Assembly: GCA_022843525.1 (NCBI GenBank)
Contig: JALHNR010000015.1
Span: forward strand, 1 to 24,283
DNA length: 24,283 nt
From: Methylocystis sp.
Lineage (GTDB): Bacteria > Pseudomonadota > Alphaproteobacteria > Rhizobiales > Beijerinckiaceae
Direction of reading: 5' to 3'
Shown here piece after piece: positions 3,966-24,283 of this stretch (position 1 is its first letter; the number at the start of each line of letters is the position of its first letter). The position numbers and the translations under genes are program-made. The notes under the pieces were generated by a model. That model searched no databases. It saw nothing but the letters and a program-made list of their open reading frames with translations, and was not told the origin of the DNA.

Positions 3966-3992
3966 TCAATGACGAACGGGGGAGTTAAAGGC

Positions 3993-7057: not shown

Positions 7058-9409
7058 ATGCGCAGCGCCTGCCGGTTCGCTGCTGAGTTTCAGGAGGGCG
7101 TCGTGGAAAGCGCGCGTAAACTCTGGATCACGCTCATCGCCCTGTTGGTGCTCTCCTTTGCCGTGCTTCTGCTCATCGGCCGGGAAATAAGCGTCAAGGC
7201 GCCGCCTTTGCCCGAGCGCGTCGTTACGGAAACAGGACGCACGGTCTATACCCGTGCTGACATCGAGCGCGGGCGTCAGGTCTGGCAGTCCATCGGCGGC
7301 ATGCAGCTCGGCTCCGTCTGGGGCCATGGCGGCTACGTCGCGCCAGACTGGACCGCCGACTGGCAGCACCGAGAACTCGTCGCCATCCTGGACGCCTGGG
7401 CGCGCCGCGAGTTCGCGGCCGGCCGCTACGCTGATCTCAGCGAGGAGCAGCAGAGTTCTCTGCGGGGACGGCTGCGCCCGATGATGAGGCGAAACACCTT
7501 CGATCCGAAAACTGGGACAATTACTGTTTCTGAGGAGCGCGCTCAGGCGATCGACCTCGTCTCGAGCCACTATGAGAGCCTGTTCGGCGACGATCCGCGC
7601 AGTGCGGAACTTCGCGAGAACTACGCAATGAAGAACGGCACTGTCGACGACGCCGAGCATCGGCGGGCGCTAGGCGCCTTCTTCTGGTGGACCGCGTGGG
7701 CCGCGACCACGGAGCGGCCGGGAAGCCACGTCACCTACACCAACAACTGGCCGAGCGAACCGCTGGTCGACAACCGCCCGCCTGCGACCACCTTCATCTG
7801 GTCTGCGTTCAGCGTGGTATTCCTGCTTGCCGGCATCGGCCTGCTCGGCTGGCACCGCGCCGTCAGTCATGCACACGGCGCCGAGACGTGCGATGTGCCC
7901 GCGCGTGATCCGATGCGCAACGTAAGGGTCACGCCGTCCATGCGCGCGACCGCCAAATATTTTTGGGTGCTTCTTGCCCTGTTTCTCGTCCAGATCCTGT
8001 TCGGCGCCATAAGCGCCCATTACCAGGTCGAGGGGCAGCTGTTTTACGGCTACCCGATGGCGGAGATCCTCCCCTATTCGATCACCCGCACCTGGCACAC
8101 GCAATTGGCCGTGCTGTGGATCGCCACCGCCTGGCTCGGCACTGGGCTCTACATGGCGCCGGCGATTTCCGGGTACGAGCCCAAGTTCCAGGCGCTCGGC
8201 GTCAATGTGCTCTGGATCTGCTTGCTGATCATTGTGGTCGGCGCCTTCGCGGGCCAATGGCTCGCGGTCATGCAACGGCTGGGATTGGAACACAATTTCT
8301 GGTTCGGGCATCAGGGCTGGGAGTATGCCGATATCGGGCGTTTCTGGCAGTGGTTCCTTTTTATCGGCCTGCTGCTGTGGCTCTCCCTCGTCGGCCGCGC
8401 CTTGTGGCCGGCGCTACTGGCAAAAACTGAGTCACGCTCGATCGTCGCTCTTTTCTTCCTCTCGACGGTCGCAATTGGCCTGTTCTACGGCGCGGGGCTG
8501 ATGTGGAACGAGCATACGCATCTGTCGATGGTCGAATATTGGCGGTGGTGGCTGGTTCACTTGTGGGTGGAAGGGTTTTTCGAGGTGTTCGCCACCGCGG
8601 TCGTCGCCTTCCTGTTCACCCGCCTCGGCCTGGTCGCAGTCAAGCCGGCAACTTCGGCGGTGCTGTTCGCGACGATCGTCTTTATGGCCGGCGGCGTGAT
8701 CGGCACGCTCCATCATCTCTATTTCGCCGGCACTCCGATGTCGGTGTTGGCGCTTGGCGCCAGTTTCTCCGCGCTCGAAGTCGTGCCGCTCGCCTATATC
8801 GGCTTCGAGGCCTATGAGCATTGGCGGTTCTGCGGCGCCACGCCCTGGATGCAGCGCTATAAATGGCCCGTGCTGTTCTTCATCGCGGTCTCCTTCTGGA
8901 ATCTGGTGGGAGCCGGTCTGTTCGGTTTCCTGATCAACCCGCCGCTCTCGCTCTATTACATGCAGGGGCTCAACCTGACACCGCTGCACGGCCACACGGC
9001 GCTGTTCGGCGTCTATGGGATGCTCGGCATCGGCCTCGTGTTGTTCTGCCTGCGCGGAATGATGCCCGAACTCGTCTGGAACGAGAAGATCCTCAGCATC
9101 AGCTTCTGGTGCTTCAACGTGGGGCTGGGGATGATGGCGTTGTTCACGCTCCTGCCGCTCGGCACGCTGCAACTCCTTGCCGCGATCAATGAAGGTTATT
9201 GGTACGCCCGCTCTGAGCAGTTCATGCAGCAGCCGATCGTCGATCTTCTGGTATGGATGCGCGTGCCGGGCGACACGGTCTTTTCGATAGGCGCATTGGC
9301 CTTCGCCTGGTTCGTTGTCAGCCTGTGGCTCCGGCCGCGCCGCCAGCCTCATGAAGTGGAGCAGGAGGACAGGGAACTGGAGGCGGGACCGGCGAAGCGT
9401 GCGGCGTGA
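7058..9409 (+). CDS. norB: Quinol-dependent nitric-oxide reductase, single-subunit large NorB (qNOR/NorZ)
   Basis: The length is about 770 aa, as in qNorB. It has the N-terminal NorC-like periplasmic extension without a CXXCH haem motif. A heme-copper oxidase core with the His ligands follows: HLWVEGFFEVFATA, GTLHHLYFAG and FHQLDL-equivalents. Many transmembrane segments are present. The N-terminus aligns to the qNorB consensus: KLWITL, APPLPERVV, GGMQLGSVWGHGGYVAPDWTADW, TYTNNWPSEPL. The start is uncertain between the ATG at 7058 and the GTG at 7103; an AGGAGG Shine-Dalgarno lies just upstream of the latter. Confidence 0.9.
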   Translation: MRSACRFAAEFQEGVVESARKLWITLIALLVLSFAVLLLIGREISVKAPPLPERVVTETGRTVYTRADIERGRQVWQSIGGMQLGSVWGHGGYVAPDWTADWQHRELVAILDAWARREFAAGRYADLSEEQQSSLRGRLRPMMRRNTFDPKTGTITVSEERAQAIDLVSSHYESLFGDDPRSAELRENYAMKNGTVDDAEHRRALGAFFWWTAWAATTERPGSHVTYTNNWPSEPLVDNRPPATTFIWSAFSVVFLLAGIGLLGWHRAVSHAHGAETCDVPARDPMRNVRVTPSMRATAKYFWVLLALFLVQILFGAISAHYQVEGQLFYGYPMAEILPYSITRTWHTQLAVLWIATAWLGTGLYMAPAISGYEPKFQALGVNVLWICLLIIVVGAFAGQWLAVMQRLGLEHNFWFGHQGWEYADIGRFWQWFLFIGLLLWLSLVGRALWPALLAKTESRSIVALFFLSTVAIGLFYGAGLMWNEHTHLSMVEYWRWWLVHLWVEGFFEVFATAVVAFLFTRLGLVAVKPATSAVLFATIVFMAGGVIGTLHHLYFAGTPMSVLALGASFSALEVVPLAYIGFEAYEHWRFCGATPWMQRYKWPVLFFIAVSFWNLVGAGLFGFLINPPLSLYYMQGLNLTPLHGHTALFGVYGMLGIGLVLFCLRGMMPELVWNEKILSISFWCFNVGLGMMALFTLLPLGTLQLLAAINEGYWYARSEQFMQQPIVDLLVWMRVPGDTVFSIGALAFAWFVVSLWLRPRRQPHEVEQEDRELEAGPAKRAA

Positions 9410-9421
9410 TCCGCCACTTGC

Positions 9422-9820
9422 ATGGAAGCCTATTACTTCGAGATTCGCGCTGTCCACATCGCGGCGGCGCTCGCGAGCGGCGGCTTCTACCTTATGCGCG
9501 CGCTCGCTTTAAACTTGCTCGCCGCGTCATGGCCGCTGTCGATAGTCGCGCGGCTTGCCTCCTACTCGATCGATACCGTGCTCTTTACGGCTGCCCTCAT
9601 GCTGATGGCCGTCACGCGTCAATACCCGTTTGGTGACACTTGGCTGACCATGAAGGTCGTGGTCATGCTGCCGCTCTATATTTTCCTTGGTTACTGGGCG
9701 CTCCGAGCCAAGGCGTTCAAGTTGCGGTTGGCGGCGATGGCCGGCGCGATCGCGGCTTTTCTTTTGATTTATAGCATCGCACGCACGCACAGCCCGCGGG
9801 GCGTGTTTGCGCTTGGGTGA
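9422..9820 (+). CDS. Small 4-TM membrane protein, SirB2/YchQ-like
   Basis: This 132-aa ORF has four predicted hydrophobic helices. It resembles the SirB2 family, pairing AVHIAAALASGGFYLMRA against the HIIAAFASVALFLLRG-type. It starts 10 nt after the norB stop. Confidence 0.45.
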   Translation: MEAYYFEIRAVHIAAALASGGFYLMRALALNLLAASWPLSIVARLASYSIDTVLFTAALMLMAVTRQYPFGDTWLTMKVVVMLPLYIFLGYWALRAKAFKLRLAAMAGAIAAFLLIYSIARTHSPRGVFALG

Positions 9821-9861
9821 GAAACGTCGTCAGCTTGGTCGGCCTTGCCTCGAACCCGCCT

Positions 9862-11070
9862 TTACGTCGTTGGATGCAAGCGCTTCGTCGTCAACATCCC
9901 GAAATAGAGCAGCACGAAGAGCCCGTACGCCAAGCTCCACATGCCCCCGGCGGCGGCGATCGCAGCAAAGTAATACGCGCCCGTAAAAGGGGCGCCAATG
10001 CGCAGGATGGCCGCAAATGTTATGGCGATGTAGATCGCGGCCGTTCTCTGATCTGCGACGAGCGGGCGCCCGGTGTGGCCGCGCGTTGCACGAGTCATCA
10101 CCGCGAGCGTCATTGTTCCGATGGCGCCGACGGTGAGGGCATGCAGAGGCGCTGCAGAATCCGTGGCCCAGAATAGTTTGTTGCCGCCCATGAGCAGGAA
10201 GCCCAAGGGAACCCAGCCATATCCCAGATGCAGCACGAAGAGCATCGGTTCCGCCCGCGCGCTGACGCCGCGCCAGCGGATAAGACGTAGAAAGAGCGCC
10301 GCCCCGGCGATAATCAGGAGACCCGCCGTAGGCCCCGCGTCAGGGAACGCGGCCCAGGCGATGAGCGCCACAAGCGTCGCCGCCAGCGCGAAACGATCGA
10401 AAGCGCCGAAAGGCGCCGGCTCCACTTCAGCTGGCGAATTCTTCGCGAGCCAGTTGCGGGTGAAGCTCGGCGTGATGCGCCCCCCGATGATGGCGATGAG
10501 CATGACGAGGGTCGCGACGCCGACGCGGGCCCCGATGGCGCCCGTTGCGGCAAGGCCGATCGCTTCGAGATGCGTGAGCAAATTCCCGATAAAGAGAAGC
10601 GCAAGAGCGGCCACCATGGGCAAGTTGCGCCAGTTCCGCCCCGTGGCGATCTCGCGCGCGACAACGAAGATAAAGACCGCCGGGAAAGCGAGGTCGAGCG
10701 CCGCAGAGACGAGCGCAGGCGCACTATTTGAAGTCAGGACGGCGATGCGCCCCAGCAGCCAGAGAGCGACGAGGCCGGCGAGCGGCGCGCCTTGTAAGGG
10801 CAGTCGACCGGTCCAGTTTGGAATGGCCGTCAGCAAGAATCCCGCGACGACGGCGCCGCCAAAACCGAAGGCCATTTCATGCGCGTGCCAGAGAGAGGGC
10901 GCGAAGCGTGTCGGCAGTTCGGCCGCCGCCTCCAGATAGGCGATGGAGAGCGGCAGCCCGACAGCGGCCCAGAGCGCGGCAAAAAGGAAGAAGGGGCGGA
11001 AACCCGCTGAAAGAAAGATCGCCACAGGGTTTTGACTCGCCTGAGCGCGATATCGCGGAATTGGAGGCAT
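9862..11070 (-). CDS. nnrS: NnrS family heme-copper membrane protein (NO-response)
   Basis: The 402-aa protein is polytopic with about 12 transmembrane segments. It carries the NnrS hallmark N-terminus GFRPFFLFAALWAAV ... SLWHAHEMAFGFGGAVVAGFLLTAIPNWTG. It is convergent with the norB cluster. Confidence 0.85.
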   Translation of the reverse strand: MPPIPRYRAQASQNPVAIFLSAGFRPFFLFAALWAAVGLPLSIAYLEAAAELPTRFAPSLWHAHEMAFGFGGAVVAGFLLTAIPNWTGRLPLQGAPLAGLVALWLLGRIAVLTSNSAPALVSAALDLAFPAVFIFVVAREIATGRNWRNLPMVAALALLFIGNLLTHLEAIGLAATGAIGARVGVATLVMLIAIIGGRITPSFTRNWLAKNSPAEVEPAPFGAFDRFALAATLVALIAWAAFPDAGPTAGLLIIAGAALFLRLIRWRGVSARAEPMLFVLHLGYGWVPLGFLLMGGNKLFWATDSAAPLHALTVGAIGTMTLAVMTRATRGHTGRPLVADQRTAAIYIAITFAAILRIGAPFTGAYYFAAIAAAGGMWSLAYGLFVLLYFGMLTTKRLHPTT

Positions 11071-11084
11071 CGTTGACTTCCCCT
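10460..11084. repeat. Roughly 620-bp segmental duplication of the nnrS 5' region (second copy at 18703-19324)
   Basis: The two copies align by eye with only scattered substitutions and one in-frame 3-nt indel (gccgccgcctcc versus gccgtctcc). The homology stops about 15 bp upstream of the nnrS start codon at one end and inside nnrS codon about 204 at the other end. Confidence 0.75.
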
Positions 11085-11688
11085 TTGGAATTGATGATGG
11101 GCTGGCGCTCGGTCACTAACGCACACATCGAGCGCGCAGGTCGCGAGCCTCGCGTTAGAAGCCAGCGGAATGTCACGGAGGGGAGGGGAAGATCAATAGG
11201 CCTTCTCTTGCGACACCATTCCTTCTTCTACGCGGATTCCCCGCAGATTGCGAAGGCGTTGCGAGGAAAGCGTCGCGCGCCACCGGCGTGGGTTGCGCTC
11301 GGGGCGTTCCTCGCCCTTGTGACCGCGACGACATGGATATCGACGAGCTCTTCCGCGAACCGCCGCGGGCGGCTGAGCGATAGTGGCCGAATTCGGTAAC
11401 GCGATGGCCAAGCCGAACGCGCGTCACTGCCACTCGTGGTCAAATCGCGGCGCTCCCTGATCAGTGGTGCAGGATCCGTGCAACCTCATGATGGCGCTCC
11501 GGCCAGCGCGACAAGCATATCGACTCGGTCGTCACGAGCTCCATCAGCTGCGCCTCGGTAAAATCCTCTGTCGCTGCTGGCCTTTCAGGAATTACGAAAC
11601 ACCGCGCCGTCCCGCTGCTGTCCCACACCCTGATCTCCGTTTCCTCGGGCAGTGGACGCCAACCTCGGCGAGCACTTTCCGCGGCTCG

Positions 11689-11960
11689 CGGGCCGCGCGG
11701 GCGCGAAATACCGGATCGGCAATCCCAGCACCGGCCATGGGAAGCACGAGCAAAGCGAGCAGATGATCAGGTTGTGCACCTCGGGCGCGTTAGCGACGGC
11801 CCGCAGGTGCTCGCCCTCGGCGCCGGCCATTCCCTCGGGCAGGTCGAGTTTGGCAATTGCGGCCGGGGTGTCGGCCAGGAGCCGGGCCAAGAAGCCCGCG
11901 TCGGTCCACGCTCGCACGACGATCTTTCTTGCCGTTGAGCGGACGCGGTCCTGCGGATAC
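11689..11960 (-). pseudogene. Nitrile hydratase alpha-subunit-like remnant (N-terminus missing, C-terminus divergent)
   Basis: KIVVRAWTDAGFLARLLADTPAAIAKLDLPEGMAGAEGEHLRAVANAPEVHNLIICSLCSCFPWPVLGLP aligns to NHase alpha. It retains the metal-binding C(S/T)LCSC claw motif. The expected N-terminal roughly 80 aa are absent, and the frame is not alpha-like beyond GLPIRYF. Confidence 0.5.
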
Positions 11961-11972
11961 TTGAATGGCCGC

Positions 11973-12643
11973 TCATGCAGGTTCCTCCAAGTATATCTCG
12001 AACAGTTCGGCGTAAAGCGTCTGCGCGCCGGGTTCCGCGCGCGGACCCCACAATTCGGTCGGCGTGAACTCGACGATGTAGACGGGCATTGGATCGCCGA
12101 TGCCATCGCCAGTGTGCCAGAAGTAGACACAGTCGCCTTCGAGCACCTGCGCCACCGTGCCGCTCCGCCCCCGCAGATAGCCGGGCAGGCGAGTGTGCGC
12201 GCCAACTGGGACATTTGCGATCCGGACCCGCTGCCCGACGGCGAACTTCGAATGCGCGACGTCGCGCCGCGGGCTGTCGCCGTTACGTAGATATGCGATG
12301 ATCTGCTCGTCGATGGCTTCAGCCCGATCGGATCCCCTGGCCGAGCGCCGTCCGGCCTGGCCGCTTCGCCACGCAGTTAGCTTGTCCGCGAGGCTAATTC
12401 GTCCTCGCGCAGGTATCCTTGTCGACGAGGAATGGGGATGCCGCTGAGCCACTTCTCGTAGTAACGGAATTTGAAGTAGTCGAATGGATCCATCGCCTCG
12501 GCGCCAGCGCGCAGATCCGCCCATGTCCACATGTCGCGGAAGGCGGTCGGCACGTAGGCGATCGCGCAGGCCGGCACGGACGAGTCGAGATGGCCCGAGA
12601 GAGCCATCATCGCCACATAGATGCCGAATATCCGATTTCCCAC
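11973..12643 (-). pseudogene. Nitrile hydratase beta-subunit-like remnant, split by a frameshift
   Basis: The N-terminal piece (12377-12643: WTWADLRAGAEAMDPFDYFKFRYYEKWLSGI) sits in one frame. The C-terminal SH3-like piece (within 11973-12320: QRVRIANVPVGAHTRLPGYLRGRSGTVAQVLEGDCVYFWHTGDGIGDPMPVYIVEFTPTELWGP) sits in another. Both resemble NHase beta, and the frame changes near 12330-12420. Confidence 0.5.
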
Positions 12644-12817
12644 TGCCTCGGCAGGCTGGTTCAGAAAAAAGGGTCAATTCGGATCTGGAGCGCTTTTCCG
12701 ACGTTGTCCAAAATAGGCTCAGAGTTGTGGAAGGCAAAGGCCGCAACACGCCGACGGTGGAATCGGAGGATCAGGGACGACGCGCGCGGAAGATGCGGAG
12801 CGGCGGCGAATGAGCGC

Positions 12818-13130
12818 ATGACGCCTAAAGAAGTTGTCGCGCTGGTTCTTCAAGGCGGCGGCGCGCTCGACGCCTATTAGGCGGGCCCGTTCGAGGCGCT
12901 CGCGGCGGGGGATATTGTCCGCAGTGGCTCGCCGGCATTTCGATCGGCGCGATCAACGCCGTGATCATTTGCCGCAATCATCCGGAAAAGCGCGTCGAGC
13001 GCCTGCGCGCCCTTTGGGAACGCGTGATAAGCAGGACGCCCCTTCCCTTCAATCTGGACGGATTCCTCGGTCCCATTTTTGCCAACGCCAGCGCAAATCC
13101 CCTAGCGACGGTTGGCGCGCCCGGTTTTTA
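12818..13130 (+). pseudogene. Patatin-like phospholipase N-terminal remnant (nonsense codon plus frameshift, truncated)
   Basis: MTPKEVVALVLQGGGALDAY is followed by TAG where Gln (AYQAG) is expected. After a roughly 1-nt frame change near 12910, the sequence continues WLAGISIGAINAVII, which is the GxSxG nucleophile elbow. The remainder of the gene is absent, and an ECF sigma gene on the opposite strand follows. Confidence 0.5.
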
Positions 13131-13261
13131 GGCTGCGTCTACCGCCTCCGGCCCTCTTATGGCCCTATTCAGCGCCCGGCTATCCCACCTCATATCTTCC
13201 CTTCCGAATAGTTCCATCAAGCAGACTTATGCGGCTGAGGTACGGGGCTCTCGACCCGCCG

Positions 13262-13975
13262 CTACTCTTCGCTGGCCAGCCCTTCCGCTTTACAGCGTTC
13301 GAGGACACCGGTCACGATGCGGTCGCACCGCGCGCCGGCGAAGGCGAAAACGTCGCTTAAGCCCGCGTCCATCTCCTGGGCAAGGCTTTCGCGCAACAGG
13401 CTGCTAGCTCGGAAGAAGCGCGTACGCACCGTCGCCTCGGGGATCTCCAGCGCCTCGGCGGTTTCTTCGACGCTCATCTCCTCGATCGCGCGCAGCATGA
13501 ACACCGTCCGGAAGGCCTCCGGCAGAAGGTCGATGCGCGCCTCCAAGAGCTTGCGCATCTGAACCCGCATCATCGATTGTTCTGGGCTACGCTCAGGCTC
13601 ATCGTTCAGCGCTGTCTGGGCTTCAGATTCATGGGGCGTCATGGCAGCTTCCAAAGGAATGATCTGGGCACTCTTTCGCCACAAGCGGCCGAGCGCTTCA
13701 TGGGTCGTGATCCGCACAAGCCAGGTATAGAGCTTGCTCTCGGCGCGATAGTTTCCAAGCGCGCGCCACGCCCGCAGATAGGTGTCCTGGACGACATCCT
13801 CCGCCTCCGCATCATTGTGCACGATGCTACGCGCCGTACGGAACAGAAGCTGGTTGTGCCGTCGCATGATGGCTTCGAACGCCACTCCGTCACCGTCAGC
13901 GGCGCGCGAGATCAGCTCTGCCTCCGGCGTGGTTTTCGATAAGCTATTTGCCGCCTGACGCTGAAGTGATTGCAT
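13262..13975 (-). CDS. ECF-family sigma factor with a C-terminal extension
   Basis: ELISRAADGDGVAFEAIMRRHNQLLFRTARSIVHNDAEAEDVVQDTYLRAWRALGNY matches region 2. LPEAFRTVFMLRAIEEMSVEETAEALEIPEATVRTRFFRA matches region 4. About 40 extra C-terminal residues follow, including two Cys (ARCDRIVTGVLERC). A GGAGG Shine-Dalgarno precedes the ATG at 13975, and the ORF's upstream extension reaches 13987. Confidence 0.8.
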   Translation of the reverse strand: MQSLQRQAANSLSKTTPEAELISRAADGDGVAFEAIMRRHNQLLFRTARSIVHNDAEAEDVVQDTYLRAWRALGNYRAESKLYTWLVRITTHEALGRLWRKSAQIIPLEAAMTPHESEAQTALNDEPERSPEQSMMRVQMRKLLEARIDLLPEAFRTVFMLRAIEEMSVEETAEALEIPEATVRTRFFRASSLLRESLAQEMDAGLSDVFAFAGARCDRIVTGVLERCKAEGLASEE

Positions 13976-14195
13976 TTGCGCCTCCATTCATTGAACAGGT
14001 AGGCTACCGGCGTGCCTTTGCCGGCGCTGCCGCTATAGGGATCGCGCGCGCCGCGTCTTCCGGATCGCGCAGCAATTCCATCATGCCCGCGACCATCGCG
14101 AAAGCGATCAACGCGTCGATGAGTATCACGGCTCCTTTCCGGGCGTACGGGCGATGGCGGGGCGCCGTTCCGTCGTCGCCCTTGGCGTTGTCCGA

Positions 14196-14609
14196 CTAAT
14201 GTTCGAACTTCGTTGGGAAGGCGGCGATCAAACCGTTGGTCAGGGCATCGGCCAGCATCATCATATGAGCCTCCGCCTTTCCATATTCGGCGATGCCGTT
14301 GGCATATTTGCCCTGCAAAAGCCCCGTGGCGTAGACCACAGTTGTGTCGATATGCCCCTTGAGCCTGTCGCGTACCTTGGTTTGCGGCCAGTTCTCGTTC
14401 GCCTTGGCGAGAAAATCGGCAATTTCCTGCGCGTTTGCGTAGGCGGCTGCGACGGACTTGTCGGTGGCCGGCTTGTCGCCGGCCTTGGCGGCTTTCACGA
14501 CCTCGACGGCTGCGCCGATATGCTCCTGAAGCAGCTTGGTGAGCGCGTTACCAGCTGCATCGCCATAGAAGGGCTTGATAGCGTCGCCGATATCGGGCTG
14601 GTTCTGCAT
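14196..14609 (-). CDS. Hypothetical Cys-free helical (probably periplasmic) protein, 137 aa
   Basis: The ORF has no recognisable family. Its predicted secondary structure is alpha-helical, and it is Ala/Lys-rich with a Met-rich stretch ([10 protein letters not shown]). Its ATG overlaps by 1 nt (TGATG) the stop of an upstream 43-aa ORF that is purely a signal peptide. Confidence 0.45.
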
Positions 14610-14740
14610 CAGTCGCGCTGCATGTTAACGGAATAGGCGGCGGTCGGGCGGAAAACGGGAGTAGCCATAAGTGCGGCGGCGAAGCCCGCAAGGGCGAGGC
14701 GGCGATTAACGGCCGGGTGGAACATCTGCACGCGTGTCAT
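14609..14740 (-). other. 43-aa ORF encoding only a Tat/Sec-like signal peptide, probably the frameshifted 5' part of the downstream gene
   Basis: [43 protein letters not shown] has a strong AAGGAGAA Shine-Dalgarno 6 nt upstream. It ends 1 nt into the next ORF's ATG. A signal peptide with no mature domain is implausible as a standalone gene. Confidence 0.35.
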
Positions 14741-14809
14741 GACGGTTCTCCTTGGTCGATCAGTTTGCGTAGCGGCCGGTGTGATCGACTCGATGCGGCC
14801 CCGTACATT

Positions 14810-15137
14810 CGATGCGACCCTTTCGCGCTGCGTTCCCGTTGCACGAGATTTTTTTGGGGGAAAAGAGAAAGCTTCCGAGCAGGTCGAGCGGCAGAGTACG
14901 GTCAACTCTAAAACATCCTGCGACAACACAAGCGCTGGATCGTAAACGGGCTGCGGAGGCGCTAAAACTCATAGCGCCTCCGCTATCGCACCAGCGTGAA
15001 TTTACGGGGGTTCCCGACGGTACGATATTTCTGTACAGAGCGGTAGCTGCCGCTCAGTTTTTCTCCGCACTCGCGCCCTGTATATTAGATGCGACCATTC
15101 CGCGCTGCGTTCCCGATGCAGGAATATTTTTGGCTTT
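14810..15137. repeat. Two copies of a roughly 50-bp direct repeat about 280 bp apart (14810-14862 and 15089-15137)
   Basis: gtacattcGATGCGACCcTTtCGCGCTGCGTTCCCGtTGCAcgAGATTTTTTTGG is compared with gtatattaGATGCGACCaTTcCGCGCTGCGTTCCCGaTGCAggAATATTTTTGG. On the minus strand both read GGGAACGCAGCGCG.AA.GGTCGCATC. Confidence 0.5.
14943..14974. other. Strong hairpin (12-bp perfect stem, 7-nt loop)
   Basis: GCGGAGGCGCTA-aaactca-TAGCGCCTCCGC sits in the intergenic region between the split secreted-protein gene and DUF488. Confidence 0.4.
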
Positions 15138-15231
15138 AGGCGTGTGGCCGGGTTTGTTCGCTTGGGCGCGAGCATCGAGGCGTTGCTCGAAGCTCTGGCG
15201 TCGAAGCGCTGCCAATGCTGCGAGCGGCGGA

Positions 15232-15759
15232 CTACGGATAGATAACGGCGCCGTCAGGTTGAATGACCGCGCCTGGAGTGAGATGGGCCGGCTCCAGACG
15301 ACCTTCCCCCAAAATGTGGAAAACGGTCTCCCCGCTGGCGATAAGATAATCGGCGACGATGCGGCGGTGGCATCGCCACCATACGGCTTCCGAACACATG
15401 ATGGTACAGCGCCGCTTGCGTCCTCTGTCCAAGAGGTGTTGGAGGCCTGCCTGAAACTGTGTAGTAAGCGCATAATCGGCGTAGTTGTGGAAACTCTCGT
15501 TCGTCCAGAAGGCGTTGACAGTCGGAGATATGCCGCGTGACCTTCCACGAAGGCCACCGAGGGCAGCCATATGTTCATAAGAGATGGCGACGGCCGCCAA
15601 GGCGCCGGGAAGCGTGTTCTTGTCAAACTGTGGATTGGTTCGTGACTTCGGAATCGTTCTGATGTCCGCGACAAGAGCGATATCGGCTTCGCGCAGCAGA
15701 CCGATGAAAGCCTCGAGGGTTCGGTTGGAATGGCCGATGGTGAAAAACGGAAGCTTCAC
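15232..15759 (-). CDS. DUF488 family protein
   Basis: FTIGHSNRTLEAFIGLL...IALVADIRTIPKSR...F...L...L...GISYEHMAALGGLRG ... CSEAVWWRCHRRIVADYL matches the conserved DUF488 (YeaO-like) blocks. Confidence 0.75.
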   Translation of the reverse strand: MKLPFFTIGHSNRTLEAFIGLLREADIALVADIRTIPKSRTNPQFDKNTLPGALAAVAISYEHMAALGGLRGRSRGISPTVNAFWTNESFHNYADYALTTQFQAGLQHLLDRGRKRRCTIMCSEAVWWRCHRRIVADYLIASGETVFHILGEGRLEPAHLTPGAVIQPDGAVIYP

Positions 15760-15771
15760 GCGCGGCCTTCG

Positions 15772-15981
15772 TTATGCATAGTCGAGCGCGCCGCCCTTAT
15801 GCGCTGCGATGTGATCTGTCTTGTCGCTTTTGATTTCGTACTGGGGATCGTCTTTCGACGCGTGATGCGTGTGGCCTTTATAATCGAAATCTCTAATGTG
15901 AATGGCGATGATAGTCCCCGACACGCGTCCGGCCTCGGAGTTCCAGCTCACATGATCGCCGATCTTAAACTTCCGTGCCAT
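15772..15981 (-). CDS. DUF2945 (HVA1/Tudor-like) small protein
   Basis: The 69-aa sequence MARKFKIGDHVSWNSEAGRVSGTIIAIHIRDFDYKGHTHHASKDDPQYEIKSDKTDHIAAHKGGAL matches the DUF2945 consensus (KFK.GD.V.WN...G...G.I...H......G.....AS...P.Y.I..D....). Confidence 0.7.
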   Translation of the reverse strand: MARKFKIGDHVSWNSEAGRVSGTIIAIHIRDFDYKGHTHHASKDDPQYEIKSDKTDHIAAHKGGALDYA

Positions 15982-17063
15982 CGCTGCGTCCTCCCGGTTC
16001 CAAGAAGCGCTTCTCCCAAACAGATGGATCCGAAGTCTACGCCCGGCGCCAGCACCACGGAAGCCTAGGTCGTCGGCAGCCGGAAGGTGAAGGTCTCCAG
16101 AAAATTCAGTTCGACGGCCGTGCTGGAATAGCTCGTGTAACCAACGGATATGTCCCGACCGATATCTAACTCGAAGTCACCGCTGCAGGTCGTGCGCACG
16201 ACGCTGCCTTCAATGGCGGGCGCCAGATGATCCCTCCGTCCACCATACGCTCAAGATGGTGAAAAACCGGATAGCCCTGGACGCTTCCGCCACTCGCGGC
16301 GGTGTAGGTGTCTAGCCCGAGCACGAGCGCGTACGGACCGTGTCGCCGGCGAGCCGCAACTGGCTGACCCGCCTGAGCGAGGCGCTTGGGTAACCCGGAC
16401 GTTGGAAGGCAGCACAACGCCCTGATTGCTGCTGGCCTCGCGAATGGTGAATGCCTGCCGCAGCGTACCCATCGGACACAGCGCGATCCTTTGCAAAGGG
16501 GATTTCCCGGGCACCCAATCTGAATCCATTGCGCCGCGCTCCACGTCGTCGATCGCTTGCCGCGTCAGACCGTCTGGAATACGATCCAGAACGACTTGCC
16601 GACCCTGAAACAGCAGATGACGACGGGGACGAAGATGACTGCTGAATGGGACAGGTTCACGCTACGGAAATTGCCATGCTGAGGCTGATCCTGATAGCAA
16701 ACAGCCACGTTACCATTTTGCCAAGCCTTTGTATCAACCCGCCAATTCTGAATCCAACAATGGGCACGCAATTAGCCGATGAAGACGGCAAAGATGCAGC
16801 TTGCGTGATCGGTGAGCAATTTTCTGTCTTTCACCAAGGATGGCGTCCCGTCTGATGTTCTTCCTGCTACTTTCACCATTGACAGGCTTAGGTCCGACTC
16901 AGTTATCCTTGTCACGGCGATCGAGTTCGCGCTCAACCGCCTGCGGCTGATGACCCCTGCTCTACATTGTGTCGGAGTCCGTCGTTGCTCTAGTCGACAA
17001 CCGCGGATGATGTCGCGTAATACCGCCCAGTAGCGATTATAGAACGGAGCGAGGGTGGCGATC

Positions 17064-18647
17064 ATGGATAGGCCGGCCCGAATGATAGGCTGGCGATTCC
17101 TGCTGCTGAATGGCGCGGCGGGGGCGGCGAATGTCGTCATGCTCTCGAACGTTCCGGGCTACACGGTGCTCGCGCCCTATGCCGCCGGCAGTCTGCAGGG
17201 CGTGACGCCGAGCTTCGGCACCTGGGCGACCACCGACCACATGGTGGGAATCGCGCTCGGCCTGCCACTGTCGCGGTGGTTCTCCGGGCGCTTCGGCGAC
17301 TATCGCGTGCTGATCGGCGCGCTCGTTGTCTACGCCATCTTCTCGCTGATGTGCGCGGCGAGCGAAACCATCTGGTTTTTCGCGCCGATGCGCTTTCTCC
17401 TCGGACTTGCCGGCGGCGTCGCCCTTCCGCTCGCCCAATCCGTGACGCTTGCGCAATATCCGGATCACCAGCGCACGCTCGGCGTCGGCTTCTGGGGCGT
17501 CATGAGCATGGCGCCCTTCACCATCGGCGTATTCATGGGCGGCTTCTGGGCCGAATATTTCGACTGGCGCTGGCTATTTTATTCCAACGTCTTGGTCGTG
17601 ATGCCCGTCGCGGCGATCATCGCCGCGCTGTTCTACCGGCGCGGCTTTCAGCGCCGCATGACGCGCTTCGATACGATCGGCTTCATTCTGCTCGCCGCGG
17701 TGCTGCTCGGCGTGCAGACGATTCTCAACATGGGCAATGATTTCGACTGGTTCGCGGAGCCTCTCCTCGGATGGCTGCTGCTCGTCGTGCTGCTGGCGCT
17801 GCCGATGTTCATCTTTTGGGAGTTCGGCGAACGACGGCCCGCGCTAGACCTGCGTCTGTTTCTGCATCGCAACTTCGCCATCGCGACTTTCTGCTCGATC
17901 GTCGGCTTCCTGGTGATTCAGGGCCTGCTCTCGGTGTTCATCGTGCAATTGCAGGTGCTGCTCGGCTACACGTCCTCGCTCGCCGGCATGGTCTATCTGA
18001 TCATGATTTTTCTGGCGATGGCGGCCGCGGCCGTCGTGCATGAAATCACGAGGAACGTCGACGCGCGACTGATCGTGTTCCTCAACTTCATCGGTCTCGC
18101 AGTGACCTTTGTCTGGCTCGGACAATACGACAAGAACGCCTATTTCGATGACGTCAAGACGCCGATGTTCTTTTTCGGCTTCTCGCTCGCGATGTTTTTT
18201 GCGCCGCTCGCTACCCTCGCCATGACCGGGCTCGTCGGCGAACGACTGATCCGCGCGGCGGAAGAGCTCGCGATGCTGCGCACCGTGGCCGGCGCCCTGG
18301 GCATCTCGCTGCTCGGCGTTCTCTTCTTCCGCCGAACGCCGTTCCATCAGCTCGATCTCGCCGATCATTTCGGCGGACGGCGCTTCGCCTCGCTCGACCT
18401 GCTCGCCACTTTCCTGGATCGCATGCAGGCGATGGGCATGTCGCCCACCGCCGCGCAGAGCCGCGCGGCGCAGCTCATTCGACAGCAGGCGTCGATCCTC
18501 GCGCTCAACGACGTCTTTCTGTTCGGCGCAATGGCGTTCATCCTGCTCTCGGGAGTCGTCTGGCTCGCCTATCCAAGCTACGCGTCCAAGAAGCGCAAAC
18601 AATCGCTAACACGGCTTTCCGCCGAGGAACTGATGGAGCAGCCCTGA
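17064..18647 (+). CDS. MFS transporter, 14-TMS drug:H+ antiporter (DHA2/EmrB-like) type
   Basis: The protein is about 528 aa with about 14 hydrophobic segments. It carries MFS motif A (SGRFGDYRVLIGAL), typical GxxxG-rich helices and a PMRFLLGLAGGVALP block. The start is either the ATG at 17064 or the GTG at 17055. Confidence 0.85.
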   Translation: MDRPARMIGWRFLLLNGAAGAANVVMLSNVPGYTVLAPYAAGSLQGVTPSFGTWATTDHMVGIALGLPLSRWFSGRFGDYRVLIGALVVYAIFSLMCAASETIWFFAPMRFLLGLAGGVALPLAQSVTLAQYPDHQRTLGVGFWGVMSMAPFTIGVFMGGFWAEYFDWRWLFYSNVLVVMPVAAIIAALFYRRGFQRRMTRFDTIGFILLAAVLLGVQTILNMGNDFDWFAEPLLGWLLLVVLLALPMFIFWEFGERRPALDLRLFLHRNFAIATFCSIVGFLVIQGLLSVFIVQLQVLLGYTSSLAGMVYLIMIFLAMAAAAVVHEITRNVDARLIVFLNFIGLAVTFVWLGQYDKNAYFDDVKTPMFFFGFSLAMFFAPLATLAMTGLVGERLIRAAEELAMLRTVAGALGISLLGVLFFRRTPFHQLDLADHFGGRRFASLDLLATFLDRMQAMGMSPTAAQSRAAQLIRQQASILALNDVFLFGAMAFILLSGVVWLAYPSYASKKRKQSLTRLSAEELMEQP

Positions 18648-18689
18648 GAGACCGTTTGAGAATGGTTGCGACGGAGATAGGGGCGTGAT

Positions 18690-19310
18690 TCAAGCTCGGG
18701 ATTTGAAGCTCGGCGTGATGCGGCCCCCGATGACGGCGATGAGCATGACGAGGGTCGCGACGCCGACGCGGGCCCCCAAGGTGCCCATAGCGTCAAGGCC
18801 CATCGCTTCGAGATGCGTGAGCAAATTCCCGATGAAGAGAAGCGCGAGAGCGGCAACCATGGGTAAGTTGCGCCAGTTCCGCCCCGTGGCGATCTCGCGC
18901 GCGACAACGAAGATAAAGACAGTCGGGAAAGCGAGATCGAGCGCCGCGGAGAAAAGCGCAGGCGTGCTATTCGAAGTCAGGACGGCGATGCGCCCAAGCA
19001 GCCAGAGAGCGACGAGTCCGGTGAGGGGCGCGCCTTGTAAGGACAGCCGACCAGTCCAGTTTGGAATAGCCGTCAGCAAAAAGCCCGCGACGACCGCGCC
19101 GCCAAAACCGAAGGCCATTTCATGCGCGTGCCAGAGAGAGGGCGGGAAGCGTGTCGGCAGTTCGGCCGTCTCCAGATAGGCGATGGAGAGCGGCAGCCCC
19201 ACGGCGGCCCAGAGTGCGGCAAAGAGAAAGAACGGACGGAATCCCGCTGAAAGAAAGATCGCCAGAGGGTTTTGACTCGCCTGAGCGCGACATCGCTGAA
19301 TCGGAGGCAT
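18690..19310 (-). pseudogene. nnrS: Truncated second copy of nnrS (N-terminal roughly 203 aa only)
   Basis: The protein is near-identical to the NnrS N-terminus: MPPIQRCRAQASQNPLAIFLSAGFRPFFLFAALWAAV ... WHAHEMAFGFGG ... GGRITPSF. It then diverges and stops after KSRA. The nucleotide homology to 10460-11084 is evident by eye. The remaining about 200 codons are absent. Confidence 0.7.
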
Positions 19311-20223
19311 CGCTGACTTCCCCGGAATGAACGCTCCGCGCCATCTAATGAATTTACTCGGTTCTTTCCTACTTCCTGTTGCGGCGGTCGCTACACAGCA
19401 AGCAGACGCGGCCTCCTTGTAATTTGTCCCCGAGCCAAGGGATCGGCTCGAGATGGAGACCTTTGCCCGAATCGCGCAGCGTGGGTAACGATACATCGAA
19501 GAGGGGTCTGCGTCATTTTACAGGATTTGCATTGCCAAAGCGGTCTTCTGCATCTCGATAGCGCCTGACAAAGAAATCGAATTTGGGCTCGGGCACGGAG
19601 TGGCCGAAACCATCACCCTCCGCCGCATCGCTCTGTAGTGTGTCGCGTGAATGACTTCGGCGAGACGGATTTCATGGATCCGCTCCATCAAGGCGCTGAA
19701 TTTCGGCTTCCTTCTTGAGCCAGAAGCGCCCGATTTGCTCGGCGATAATACGCTCGATCTCGGGCACGAGCCGAATGCGCCTTCCGGCGTTCCTCGCTGT
19801 TGTTGTGCGAGACTCGAAATAAGTCGTGTGCACAGAAAACGCGACGCCATACGAAAGTAAGGTTGACCTTGGGATATCGAATCGCCTGAGGCGGCTCTCG
19901 AAACAGGTCACGCCCGCTGGCGACCGCCGTTACAACGCACGGATTTCATCATTTTGCCCAGAGACATAAACCTCGACGCCGTCGAGACGCGAAACGATCG
20001 GTCGGATGCTTTCGGCGGGCAGCATTGAAAAGGCCGTAGAAAGCGCATCGGCGATCGTCGCGGTCTGAGCGATCCATTCCGCTTTACAGCCTGTGAAGAT
20101 GAAGCGTCGCTACCTCGCCGACGGCGCGATCACTTGCGCCACGCCGGTCATGGCGGCCGAAGAGCTGGGCGCACGTCGACTTGTCGTGCTGCCGACCGGT
20201 CACGCCTGCATGCAGGTTCGTGA

Positions 20224-20445
20224 ACTCCGCTGGATCAACTGGTGGAGATCCGTCGCAAGATTGCCGATTTAAAGCGGCTCAAGCGGGGGATGGAGGAAAT
20301 GGCGGCGCAGTGCAGCGGAAAGCGAACGCCCGAATGCGCGATCATCGACGCTCTTTTCGATACGCGGCATCCATCCGATGAACACCGTGGGCGTCAGCCG
20401 CCATCCAAGAGTGCGCGCGCGGCGAAGAGCGCCTTGCCGATCTAA
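20224..20445 (+). pseudogene. C-terminal fragment of a CueR/HmrR-type MerR-family copper-responsive regulator
   Basis: PLDQLVEIRRKIADLKRLKRGMEEMAAQCSGKRTPECAIIDALFD carries the dimerisation helix plus the C-x7-C metal-binding loop followed by (I/L)IxxL, as in CueR. A TGA sits in frame immediately upstream, and no HTH N-domain lies in any frame upstream. Confidence 0.5.
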
Positions 20446-21220
20446 AACGCTGTCACGGCTGTCGGCTGGCGTCCCTCGCTGGCATCTGCCGAATTGGGCC
20501 GGTTAGATGAACGAACGGGGTGACAAAAACTGTCGATGTTGCGGAGCCGCTCAAGGCGATTAGGCGCCATAACCTGGCGCAACAACTTTCGTCTGAATTT
20601 CCAAACGGCGGCGAATGGCGCCGCCGGCTCATGTTTCTCGCTTCTTCCGTTCCTTTCGTGCGCCTCTTCTGATTGCGTCATCGCCGGCGCAAGCCGAGTG
20701 CTCGTCTGTTCAGATCTTGACCGGGATCGCCGCTGTTTTTGCACTCCGCATCGTTGAGCCGCTTCGTTTATCGGTCACCTTCGTACGCCGCGGAATTGCG
20801 GGCGTCGTTGTTCCCCAAAGTCGTTTTGCCTGGCGCAGTGCCTATTCTTTGCCGGTTGGACCCGTGATTGTGGACTGCCGTGAGATCGAAGCGAGCCCCT
20901 CGTCAAGGTTCACGAGGTCTGATTTCCCGACGATCGGAATTCGCAGCGACTTTCCCATCGCTCTCCGTTGCGCCCGCCCGCCTCCGTTGCATGGCGTTTG
21001 GTCCTATGGCCGCAGTCGCCACCCAAAACCCTGCGGCCGCAACGATTTTCCCCTTGGCGCTCAAGCGCCAATTCCTCGCGCAACAAAATCGCCGCGGCCT
21101 TAGGGTCCTCCGCTTCTCACTTCGGCCTCGCGCTTTCCGGCGCTTCGGTTATGGCGTCGCCTTTTGCGGCCATCACGGACAGCCATCGCAACCGGGGCAA
21201 ACGCCCCAACGATGGAGAGC

Positions 21221-21593
21221 ATGATGAAGACTTTCGCGGAATTCCAAATCCTCGGCCGCATCAACAAGGCAGACGACACGCGTTTCGATCTGCGCCAACT
21301 ACGCATTCAAGGACCGCAACGGCGAGACGAAGGACAAGCCCTATTGGAACGAGATTACGATCTGGAGCGAGAGCGCGCGCAAATACGTCTGTGACTATGC
21401 GAAGCCCGGCGATCTCGTTGTAGCGCGCGGCACGCTGAAGCAGGGAAGCTTCGAGACGGACGGCGAGAAGGTCTATACTGTCGACCTCAACTGCGACGAC
21501 TTCTCGATCCTCGCCTCCGCTAAGATGGACAAGTCCGACGAGGAAACCGAGGCGGCGCCCGAGATGACGAAGAAGACCGCAAGACGCAAGTGA
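21221..21593 (+). pseudogene. ssb: SSB-like OB-fold single-stranded DNA-binding protein, apparently frameshifted
   Basis: Frame a (MMKTFAEFQILGRINKADDTRF) resembles the SSB N-terminus (ILIGRLG.DPELRY). Frame b, from about 21285, continues ICANYAFKDRNGETKDKPYWNEITIWSESARKYVCDYAKPGDLVVARGTLKQGSFETDGEKVYTVDLNCDDFSIL plus an acidic tail. Compare SSB (ATNERWKDKNGE..ERTEWHRVV.W...AE....YLKKGS.V.VEG.L..R.W). A GGAGAG Shine-Dalgarno precedes the ATG at 21221. Confidence 0.5.
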
Positions 21594-21600
21594 ATCGAAC

Positions 21601-21625
21601 GAGGGGCGGCGAACGCCGCCCCTCG
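21601..21625 (+). terminator. Perfect GC-rich hairpin immediately after the ssb-like stop (intrinsic-terminator-like)
   Basis: GAGGGGCGGCG-aac-GCCGCCCCTC forms an 11-bp perfect stem with a 3-nt loop, 8 nt after the TGA at 21591-21593. No strong U-tract follows, which is common in high-GC genomes. Confidence 0.5.
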
Positions 21626-21658
21626 TCCAGCTCGTATATCTTGCATAGGGCGGTCCGA

Positions 21659-21905
21659 GTTTGTCCCGGACAAACGTTTTAGACTAGGCCTTGCCTTTAG
21701 AGCTCCCCAGAGCACGACAAGACTTTTCAGCAGTTTGCCCAAGGCAAACTTTTCGCCGCTCGCCGCGCAGGGGCGGGCCGAGTTTGTCCAGGACAACCTT
21801 TTTCGGCGACGCCAAATGTTGATCTCAGATTTTTCCAAGCGGTGAGATTGAGTTTCCCTGGGGCAAACATTCCCGCTTGGTTGCTGGAGTTTGTCCGGGA
21901 CAAAC
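21659..21905. repeat. Array of five related palindromes GTTTG(T/C)CC-N1-3-GG(A/G)CAAAC (parS/iteron-like) upstream of parAB
   Basis: Copies lie at 21659-21675 (GTTTGTCCcGGACAAAC), 21733-21749 (GTTTGCCcaaGGCAAAC), 21782-21797 (GTTTGTCCaGGACAAC), 21852-21868 (GTTTCCCtgGGGCAAAC) and 21889-21905 (GTTTGTCCgGGACAAAC). Each is preceded by (G/C)AG and followed by a T-tract. Copies 1 and 5 are additionally embedded in a longer roughly 70-bp direct repeat (..GGCCTTGCCTTyAGAGCyCCC..). Confidence 0.55.
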
Positions 21906-22084
21906 TTTTTTGGCGCCGGGCCTTGCCTTCAGAGCCCCCGAAAAGGCGACAAAGCTCGTGAGTCCAGCTTGCCCGGGGTAAGGACTTCGACGCCCTGGCG
22001 GGCGCAAATGACCGCTTGCCTCTCTTACCCCCGTGAAATTTTGCAGTGGTTCTCATTCGGCGCGCCGGGGCAAAAACTCCGGCG

Positions 22085-22098
22085 TCGAATCGATTCGA
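22085..22098. promoter_or_regulatory. 14-bp perfect palindrome TCGAATCGATTCGA about 70 bp upstream of parA (candidate operator)
   Basis: The 14-mer equals its own reverse complement. An overlapping GAATCGA repeat extends it (gtcgaatcgattcgaatcgac). It is positioned in the parA promoter-proximal region. Confidence 0.4.
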
Positions 22099-22168
22099 AT
22101 CGACAGAGCCAGAGGAGACAGACTATGACGGCCGCCAATCGAGATTGTCGTGACGACCGAGCAGCCTC

Positions 22169-22917
22169 ATGAAGGCGCTCGTCGTGAACAATGAGAAGGG
22201 CGGCGTCGGCAAGAGCACGATCGCCGTGCATCTCGCCTGGTATTTTGCAGAGCGCGGTAAACGCGTTCTTTTCCTCGACCTCGATCCACAGAGCAATGGC
22301 ACAACGACGCTTGCGGCGCATGCTGTTGGGATCGACGCCGCTGCCCTCTTTGCGCGCCCGGTCGCCGTTCCATCGATGGCGAGCGCTGGCATTCGGGTCC
22401 TGGGCGGCAGCGCCGCCTTGCGCGGCATCGTCGCCGTAGACGGCAAGCTAATCGAACAATTCCGCTCCAATATTAAAGACGCGTCGCGCGCCTATGACAT
22501 TGCGGTCATCGACACGCCGCCAACCTTCGGCGTGCGCAATCTCGCGGCGTTGATCGCAGGTCAGTTCGTGCTGGCGTCGATCGACCTCGACGACTACGCC
22601 TCGAGGGCATTGAAACGCTGCTCAAGCACATCCTCGGCGTGAAGCAGAAATACAATTCCGGCCTCGAGATCCTCGGACTGATCCCCAATTGGCTGCAGAC
22701 AACCTCGCCGCACCAGCGGGAGAATTTGAAGAGCCTCGTCCAGAGGTTCGGCACGAAATACCTGTTCGACGGCGTGATCCCGCAACGCTCGTAGATCGGC
22801 GAGGCGTTGGCGGAGAAAAAGCCGGTCTGGAACTTACCGAAGACAGCGGCGCGCGAGGCCGGCCGCGAGATGCGCATCGTATTCGACAAGCTCGCGACGA
22901 AAATGGAGATGGCATGA
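22169..22917 (+). pseudogene. parA: ParA/Soj-family partition ATPase carrying a 1-nt frameshift and an in-frame TAG
   Basis: The N-terminus MKALVVNNEKGGVGKSTIAVHLA has the deviant Walker A. After DLDDY the ParA sequence continues only in the -1 frame: LEGIETLLKHILGVKQKYNSGLEILGLIPNWLQ...VIPQRS. A TAG at 22792-22794 follows, then IGEALAEKKPVWNL, which matches the canonical VIPRNVRLSEAPSHGKPV. The frame switch is consistent with a missing C in the CCC run near 22600. Confidence 0.7.
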
Positions 22918-23972
22918 GCTACGCTCGCAAACTCGATGATGTCGCGTTGCTGCTGGACGAACTCGAGGGCCTCGAATCGTCTGCCTCGAGCGGCAAGCCT
23001 CTCGAAATCCCGCTTTCGTCAATCGAGGAAGACCCAGATCAGCCGCGGCGCGCTTTCGACGCCGAGACGCTGGAGGAGCTCGCGGCCTCAATCCGGGAAC
23101 GCGGCGTCCTTCAACCGATCGGCCTCACTCCAGTGGGTCTCAATGGAATGCACCGAACCGTCTTCGGGGCGCGGCGCTTTCGGGCGGCGCAACTCGCTGG
23201 CCGCGCGACGATCGCGGCGTTCATTCATTCGGGAGAGGCCAGCGACCCTTACGACCAGATGATCGAGAATATCCAGTGGGACGACGTTTGGGCCGCGGAT
23301 ATCGCCGCATTCATTGCTTCCCGCCTTGCGGCGGGCGAGAAGCAGAAGGACATCGCGCTGCGGCTCGGCAAGGACAAGAGCTATATCGCCATGTATGCGG
23401 CTGTCGCGCAAATGGCGCCCGTGCTGCGAGAGCGGTTAACGACCTCGCCGATCCGCGCCGTCTATGAATTGCATCAGATGTGGAGAAAGTTTCCGCGGGC
23501 CGTCGAGGCGTTTTGCGCGCAACATGACTCGTTCACCCGCGTACAAGTGGTCGCATTTTGCGAAGGTCTGAGCGGTCGGCCGCCGCGGACTGATGATTCG
23601 CCGCTGAGTGACGAACTGCATGACGCAGCCAATCCACATGACGACGGGGCCTTGCCGGGCGCGGATCGAAAGTTGAATTGCGCTCCGCAGGGACGGAAGC
23701 GTCGAACTCGGTCGGCTAGATCCATCCGGATGCGCTCGCGACGAAGCGCGGCGCCATTCGACACGACCAGAGCGACGGGCGTCCGAAGTGGCGCTGGCGA
23801 CGTTACGTGTCGAGCATGGGCAGCGTTACGGGCGGCTGTTGTTGGAGTGCGGATCGAGCAAGAGCGAGGCGCACGGTCTGGTCTTCTCTTCGAAGACGAC
23901 GGCACGGTCGAGGATGCGCCTCTCGCTGCGTTGCGGCTCGTGTCGCTGAAGATAGGCCTAGCGAATTCGTGA
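22914..23972 (+). CDS. parB: ParB/RepB-family partition protein
   Basis: The ATG overlaps the parA stop (ATGA). The ParB box is present: EIPLSSIEEDPDQPRRAFDAETLEELAASIRERGVLQPIG ... FGARRFRAAQLAG. An HTH-like middle region follows. The C-terminal roughly 120 aa are Arg/Ala-rich and of low complexity. Confidence 0.65.
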   Translation: MSYARKLDDVALLLDELEGLESSASSGKPLEIPLSSIEEDPDQPRRAFDAETLEELAASIRERGVLQPIGLTPVGLNGMHRTVFGARRFRAAQLAGRATIAAFIHSGEASDPYDQMIENIQWDDVWAADIAAFIASRLAAGEKQKDIALRLGKDKSYIAMYAAVAQMAPVLRERLTTSPIRAVYELHQMWRKFPRAVEAFCAQHDSFTRVQVVAFCEGLSGRPPRTDDSPLSDELHDAANPHDDGALPGADRKLNCAPQGRKRRTRSARSIRMRSRRSAAPFDTTRATGVRSGAGDVTCRAWAALRAAVVGVRIEQERGARSGLLFEDDGTVEDAPLAALRLVSLKIGLANS

Positions 23973-24283
23973 CGGCAAGCCGGCCTTCACATCGTGCGTC
24001 ATGTAGCGGCTTTTCCATCCCGTAGGGACGAAGCGTAGCGGAGCGCCCGGAGGCCGCACGCGTTCTTCAAATAGCGCCGTAGTGAGGCCGGAGGGTGTGG
24101 GAAAGGCGCGGGCAAGAATCTAAGGGGGGGTCGGCAGCCTCGTCTCAATCTTCATGCCGCTGCGAACAATCCGAGGTCAACCGACGAACACGCCGGCACG
24201 CGAAGTCGACTAATCGGAATCGAGCCATCAGACTTGAAAGTGGAGCGCATCGTGTTTTTCGGAGGGGAGTGCAGGATAGGCTT

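Follow-up and report, generated by a model that had tools for sequence, protein, structure and literature searches.

Does a plasmid partition module still function when its ATPase gene is interrupted twice and its partner gene stays open? This question is raised by the window analyzed here, the complete 24,283-bp contig of Methylocystis sp. An initial annotation described parA, which starts at 22169, as doubly disrupted, and the following parB as intact and translationally coupled to it. Our analysis indicates that the module is very probably a non-functional, decaying copy of an ssb-parA-parB-mobC backbone block, the outcome of ordinary decay in a mosaic plasmid. The block is known from conjugative repABC plasmids of Methylocystis and, at a greater distance, of Methylobacterium. 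Its gene order is ssb, parA, korB-like parB, mobC and the relaxase gene, with a cluster of palindromic ParB sites ahead of parA and a conserved noncoding block resembling an origin of transfer (oriT) between parB and mobC.

The best relatives of the window in PLSDB and the GTDB representative genomes are 92-97% identical. A scan of species-representative genomes for the module yielded 21 loci. In about 14 of the 21, from Methylocystis and Methylobacterium/Methylorubrum, each block gene that is held (parA, parB, mobC, the relaxase gene and mostly ssb) is one uninterrupted frame. Lesions were defined by DNA alignments to M. parvus, L005, L027 and L018, together with tblastn frame splits. L005 is the metagenome-assembled genome (MAG) Methylocystis sp. 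Site1BBin15, the closest relative of the module (92% nucleotide and 94% ParA identity). L018 is the MAG Methylocystis sp. Site2BBin3. An additional contig, L004, is a Logan contig that was assembled independently from the SRR22388165 reads.

Lesions in parA and parB

The parA pseudogene is located at 22169-22917 on the forward strand. Pfam matches and its relatives identify it as a small ParA of 249 amino acids (aa) without an N-terminal DNA-binding extension. Its open reading frame (ORF) starts with the ATG at 22169, opens with MKALVVNNEKGGVGKST and stops at the TGA at 22640-22642. The deviant Walker A sequence KGGVGKST, which fits the motif KGGxxK[ST], is found at aa 10-17. After frame repair, ParA matches the Pfam families AAA_31 (1.9e-29, 103 bits, cut-off 27) and CbiA (2.4e-22, 79.6 bits, cut-off 25.4). 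Against the NCBIfam model ParA_partition it scores 80 bits where 180 are needed, too low for an equivalog. The repaired protein shares 78-94% aa identity with intact Methylocystis ParA proteins. In a tblastn comparison with M. parvus ParA, the identity is 84% over aa 1-144 and then 86% over aa 145-247 in the -1 frame (E = 4e-118), in agreement with the excellent homology that had been reported for the shifted frame.

The frame break, previously placed at about 22600, is real. It is a 1-bp deletion on the forward strand between 22600 and 22601. The lost base is not a C in a CCC run, as first proposed, but the A of ATC (Ile145), and the original frame then ends at the TGA mentioned above. GCC-ATC-GAC has become GCC-TCG-AG, whereas 15 of 15 relatives have GCN-ATC-GAN and Ile145 is invariant. 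The context of the deletion is C[A]T and contains no homopolymer. The second lesion, an in-frame TAG on the forward strand at 22792-22794, is also real. It was created by a C-to-A substitution at 22793 in TCG (Ser209), not from CAG as had been thought. At codon 209, 12 Methylocystis relatives have TCG or a synonymous Ser codon, and three Methylobacterium/Methylorubrum relatives encode Ala. Both lesions are present in the SRR22388165 assembly.

With the deletion and the TAG, the window parA does not contain a single uninterrupted ATPase frame. It also carries unique replacements at columns that are invariant across relatives, namely P69S, P137S, F168I, R175W and R182H. The equivalent number in L005 is zero. 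Judged by its sequence, parA is a pseudogene of the ParA/MinD-type partition ATPase family and not a functional member. Full-length ParA could not be made from it. After the break, the -1 frame of parA runs to a TGA, which shares bases with the parB ATG in the sequence ATGA (22914-22917); the initial annotation had read this overlap correctly. Translation of parA would terminate at 22642, 270 nt ahead of parB, and coupling through the ATGA would therefore be moot.

Full-length ParA might still be produced if a programmed -1 frameshift at about 22600 were combined with read-through of the TAG. The clean homology in the shifted frame and the preserved ATGA overlap with parB would suit such recoding, which had been regarded from the outset as the less likely explanation. 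Against it, parA is one frame in 15 of 15 relatives, with ATC and TCG/GCN at the two sites, and neither feature is conserved. The sequence GAC TAC GCC TCG AGG does not contain a slippery heptamer of the type X XXY YYZ. No tRNA and no Rfam element were found anywhere in the window. In addition, three neighboring genes are broken by unrelated lesions, constraint on the module is relaxed, and its broken protein fragments are unique to this contig, with no other carrier among about 15 billion proteins in a cluster look-up. We give recoding almost no credence, and recoded expression of ParA was rejected for the lack of a slippery site, a tRNA, an Rfam element and conservation.

The KorB-type parB is located at 22914-23972 on the forward strand. 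Its ORF is open, but Pfam, alignment and profile matches indicate that the gene is damaged and not intact as had been described. Alignment to L005 and L027 revealed a 2-bp deletion (GT) between 23691 and 23692 on the forward strand, in the linker region. A 2-bp insertion (TC) at 23885-23886 on the same strand brings the original frame back. The ORF stays open because the insertion compensates for the deletion. Between the two indels, residues 260-324 (65 residues) are read out of frame. The conserved block LRVEHGQRYGRLLLECGSSKSEAHGLVF lies in frame +1 relative to the parB start, and the ORF reads CRAWAALRAAVVGVRIEQERGARSGLL there.

Pfam recognizes two domains in the parB ORF, ParB_N (PF02195; 69.7 bits, 2.3e-19, cut-off 26.3) and KorB (PF08535; 60.2 bits, 2e-16, cut-off 22.3). 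The latter spans aa 141-209 and corresponds to the central DNA-binding domain. The arginine patch GxRRxRA is present as GARRFRAA at aa 85-92. No Pfam KorB_C signal was found in the ORF as it stands. After frame repair, KorB_C scores 15 bits (E = 0.024) over aa 294-345, and the signal is weak in intact relatives too. The ParB family profile matches KorB (PDB 8qa8, 4e-43), the KorB DNA-binding domain (1r71) and KorB-C (1igq, 7e-6, profile positions 289-341). About 31 of the approximately 52 residues in the C-terminal domain are replaced by nonsense sequence. As translated, the -2/+2 pair destroys the first half of the KorB-C-type domain. In RK2 KorB, this type of domain is the dimerization domain.

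Additional unique changes are found in the ParB at columns that are invariant in relatives, namely I82T, R122W and L125V. Owing to R122W, the ENxQR motif reads ENIQW. All 14 relatives compared, as well as KorB and Spo0J, keep the Arg. Three residues before it stands the Asn that corresponds to KorB N146, and substitution of N146 abolishes CTP hydrolysis in KorB (PMC11790492). The window parB has its own GGAG Shine-Dalgarno sequence. Any ParB product would start from it and would lack the native C-terminal domain. An open ORF with a coupling overlap can thus still be a pseudogene, with compensating -2/+2 frameshifts masking the damage and close relatives revealing it.

Decay of the neighboring genes and relaxed selection

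Damage is not limited to parA, as had been assumed, but extends to parB, ssb and mobC; the whole block is decayed. The ssb pseudogene (21224-21593, forward strand) has a 14-bp deletion between 21267 and 21268 that shifts the frame after codon 14. A tblastn search splits it into two frames, DNA alignment to M. parvus and L005 agrees, and the gene is intact in 11 relatives. The mobC gene is located at 2801-3320 in L004, about 50-570 bp beyond the window end. A 1-bp insertion about 240 bp past the contig end causes it to be called as fragments of 100 aa and 85 aa. In total, at least seven independent disabling lesions are found in the module.

L004 is 100% identical to the window over 21535-24283 (2,749 bp), and this includes every lesion in the region. 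It runs 828 bp past the window end, through the frameshifted mobC and into the relaxase gene, which opens intact; the contig stops after 86 codons of it.

The agreement between the two assemblies bears on whether the lesions are sequencing or assembly errors in genes that the organism carries intact. Some observations would allow for such an artefact. The window comes from a draft or MAG-type assembly, in which it is one short contig, raw reads are not part of the evidence, and several 1-bp indel differences from M. rosea BRCS1 are present elsewhere in the window. However, an identical set of lesions is found in the SRR22388165 assembly. A 14-bp deletion, a substitution, 2-bp indels and a 1-bp deletion in C[A]T are not typical homopolymer errors. 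Indel errors also cannot yield an excess of nonsynonymous changes or unique changes at invariant residues. The same contig also carries large cargo ORFs without interruption, including those of qNor (788 aa), NnrS (402 aa), a major facilitator superfamily (MFS) transporter (530 aa) and others. We consider an artefact very unlikely.

Selection on the block was assessed from the substitutions between the window and L005 in ssb, parA, parB and mobC, which were polarized with three outgroups. The ratio of nonsynonymous to synonymous changes (N:S) is 38:16 on the window branch and 23:28 on the L005 branch (Fisher p = 0.011). With 2045 nonsynonymous and 658 synonymous sites, omega is approximately 0.76 for the window and 0.26 for L005. 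For parB alone, N:S on the window branch is 13:5. The window lineage of the module nears a neutral N:S ratio. Because the module combines at least seven disabling lesions with an omega of about 0.76, the data point to a prolonged period without selection. They agree with the earlier description of an inactivated plasmid-type module; its inactivation does not appear to be recent, as had been stated.

Replicon context and the palindrome cluster

Over positions 1-19323, the window shares 96.6% identity with repABC plasmids of M. rosea. This points indirectly to a plasmid as the replicon, a matter that the initial annotation had left to be checked. The region carries YncE propellers, a multicopper oxidase, folE, qNor, SirB2, NnrS, ECF (extracytoplasmic function) sigma factors and the MFS transporter as cargo. 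The closest complete plasmid to the contig carries repA-repB-repC, and RepC homologues are also found on plasmids with an intact module. Methylocystis SC2 plasmids are likewise described as repABC replicons (cited as reference 50 in PMC3794950). On account of these three lines of evidence, the ParA/KorB-like pair is seen as a second, transfer-region system and not as the primary partition system.

The junction between cargo and module is scarred. Synteny with the M. rosea plasmid stops exactly at a truncated NnrS paralogue (18558-19310, reverse strand). Of 402 aa, this copy retains the N-terminal 244, which in tblastn are 77% identical to the homologue of the intact NnrS encoded at 9862-11070; the Pfam NnrS profile is matched over 2-188 of 371. 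The truncated copy is a rearrangement scar. Between it and the module lies a second scar, a fragment of a gene with a helix-turn-helix (HTH) domain at 20230-20415 on the forward strand (aa 91-152 of 159; tblastn 76%, E = 7e-28). The HTH gene adjoins the mer operon on M. rosea plasmid unnamed1.

A related arrangement is found in L018 (8011-14719). Its ssb is intact, its five-palindrome layout is the same, and its module joins the same cargo, arranged differently. The L018 parA carries a separate 1-bp deletion, 13 nt further downstream than the one in the window. It is truncated at about aa 195 and fused to a homologue of window 11944-16070. L018 appears to be an independently decayed copy, as its parA lesions differ from those in the window. 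The window, L005 and L018 form a trichotomy, in which the three possible groupings are backed by 2, 3 and 3 informative sites.

In the history that we propose, the block would have joined an M. rosea 'unnamed2'-type cargo plasmid by recombination or cointegration. With repABC providing replication and partition, the ParA/KorB-like pair would be dispensable or conflicting. Selection would then have ceased and mutations accumulated. The module is probably a redundant second system that decayed. Mosaic Methylocystis repABC plasmids would in this way shed a redundant IncC/KorB-like maintenance/transfer block and keep their copper and nitric-oxide cargo. These findings will not surprise plasmid biologists.

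Five 17-bp palindromes, GTTTGYCCNRGRCAAAC, are located between ssb and parA (21659-21905), with starts at 21659, 21733, 21782, 21852 and 21889. Only 0.06 sites are expected by chance. L001, L005-L009 and L018 carry the same palindrome 190-510 bp ahead of parA. Only relatives with a ParB of the same subclade have it; the subclade in which ParB is only about 50% identical lacks it. Because it co-varies with the ParB subclade, the palindrome is likely a site, parS-like or operator-like, of the KorB-like ParB. The candidate site sequence for the KorB-type ParB of this subclade is GTTTGTCCCGGACAAAC. The conserved palindrome thereby points to the likely binding site of an uncharacterized KorB-like ParB subclade. 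The window and L018 have five sites, the other carriers 2-3. Compared to L005, a 125-bp expansion in the window adds two of the sites.

The cluster raises the possibility of residual function. With ParA, SSB and MobC dead, the five sites, perhaps together with the altered ParB (N-terminal CTPase-fold domain plus HTH), might be kept as a centromere-like or operator decoy that titrates the KorB-type ParB of related plasmids and so causes incompatibility or exclusion, or might be served in trans by an intact module resident alongside. Several features would fit. The window has five sites where intact relatives have 2-3, and three of the five are perfect or close to it. In parB, a compensating indel returns the ORF to frame; the ORF is open and has its own GGAG. 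M. rosea BRCS1 carries both plasmid types. The NCBI and Logan contigs both break inside the module (in ssb, ahead of mobC and in the relaxase gene), which is what similar copies present together in the sample would be expected to cause. However, the N:S of parB on the window branch is neutral-like. R122W alters a motif residue that is otherwise invariant, and half of the C-terminal domain is lost. By chance alone, a second indel would bring back the frame in about 1 of 3 cases. L018 shares the five-site layout, and the expansion therefore predates the decay of the window copy or is ancestral. We judge residual function to be improbable. Slightly less probable still is its more specific form, in which the cluster, possibly together with the C-terminally altered ParB, would persist as a decoy centromere or operator, interfering with or serviced by the KorB-type ParB of related conjugative Methylocystis plasmids and thereby determining partition-based incompatibility or exclusion.

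Several points weigh against ordinary decay of a redundant block, the explanation that we prefer. The open parB with a good Shine-Dalgarno sequence, GARRFRAA and an HTH may retain residual DNA-binding or incompatibility activity, and three of the five palindromes are perfect or imperfect only beside the central base. The evidence for the lesions comes from assemblies rather than from individual reads. The polarized substitution counts are small (54 vs 51 sites). The contig is only 24 kb long, and it is from relatives that we infer repABC or a further intact KorB-type module on this molecule. Finally, plasmids with an intact module also carry repABC, so that redundancy alone fails to explain the decay here.

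Other features surround the coding genes. A GC-rich, terminator-like hairpin (21599-21626, forward strand) directly follows the ssb stop. It is an inverted repeat with 13-nt arms that are 100% complementary. Two noncoding blocks are located between parB and mobC. The first (24005-24113) is nearly invariant across 10 lineages. The second (24268-24283) is just upstream of mobC; the contig ends inside it, and it continues to about 24303 in L004. Across 10 plasmid lineages with ParB proteins of only about 50% identity, both are kept better than the flanking genes. A relation to oriT or the relaxosome is probable. The blocks have no match in Rfam. RNA folding of 24000-24120 gave z-scores of -1.3 and +0.2, which is no signal. 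A search for inverted repeats in the conserved noncoding block found no long repeat and only a small palindrome. A promoter and terminator scan of 20400-24283 gave results at chance level.

Three further observations were made in a related sequence and in the cargo. In L014 (Methylocystis sp. B8 contig12, 8870-9855), the relaxase gene of an otherwise intact module is split over two frames near codon 40, and may be a decaying transfer gene. In the cargo, thirteen single-base indels relative to M. rosea BRCS1 plasmid unnamed2 cluster in window 11164-13161. Five of these are in the ORF at 11973-12749 (reverse strand), whose product carries a nitrile-hydratase-beta C-terminal domain. No coding sequence (CDS) is given for this region in the BRCS1 gene table, so that one of the two sequences is decayed or error-prone there. 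The window qNor (7043-9409, 788 aa, with a NorB cytochrome c-like domain and COX1) is intact. The homologous stretch in BRCS1 unnamed2 (L002 15632-18447) has no listed CDS and may be a pseudogene.

Comparison with known systems

The best annotated match of the module is found on M. parvus OBBP pMpar-2 (NZ_CP092970.1; ParA WP_016921244.1, ParB WP_016921245.1), with 82% nt identity. In pMpar-2, ssb, parA (249 aa), parB (353 aa), mobC, the relaxase gene and the type IV secretion system are consecutive and all intact. The same block is found on M. rosea BRCS1 plasmid unnamed1 (NZ_CP044329.1). The window shares its gene order and the ATGA parA/parB overlap with pMpar-2, unnamed1 and L005, and the palindrome upstream of parA with pMpar-2 and L005. 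Identity to these blocks ranges from 82% (pMpar-2) to 92% (L005) for nucleotides, and is 84-94% for the repaired ParA. Unlike these blocks, the window has disabled ssb, parA, parB and mobC genes, a scarred junction to different cargo, and five palindromes instead of 2-3.

The module also resembles IncC-KorB of the IncP-1 plasmids (RK2/RP4). Both consist of a small Walker-type ParA and a ParB with a CTPase-fold N-domain, a KorB-type HTH, a flexible linker and a KorB-C-type beta-barrel. The KorB domain architecture used in this comparison is that in PMC11790492. Palindromic sites upstream of the operon are found in both systems. The relation between the sequences is distant, however. The palindrome is 17 bp long compared to the 13-bp OB site, and the host replicons are repABC plasmids, not IncP. 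No korA was identified, and the Arg in ENxQR is Trp in the window.

Like the repABC cassettes, the module comprises a ParA/ParB-type partition pair on Methylocystis plasmids. No repC adjoins it in the window or in relatives. Unlike the products of repAB, the repaired ParA scores 57 bits against the RepA model TIGR03453 (cut-off 348), and the L005 ParB scores 49 bits against RepB (cut-off 201). On these scores, the module is a separate, second ParA/ParB pair and not repAB.

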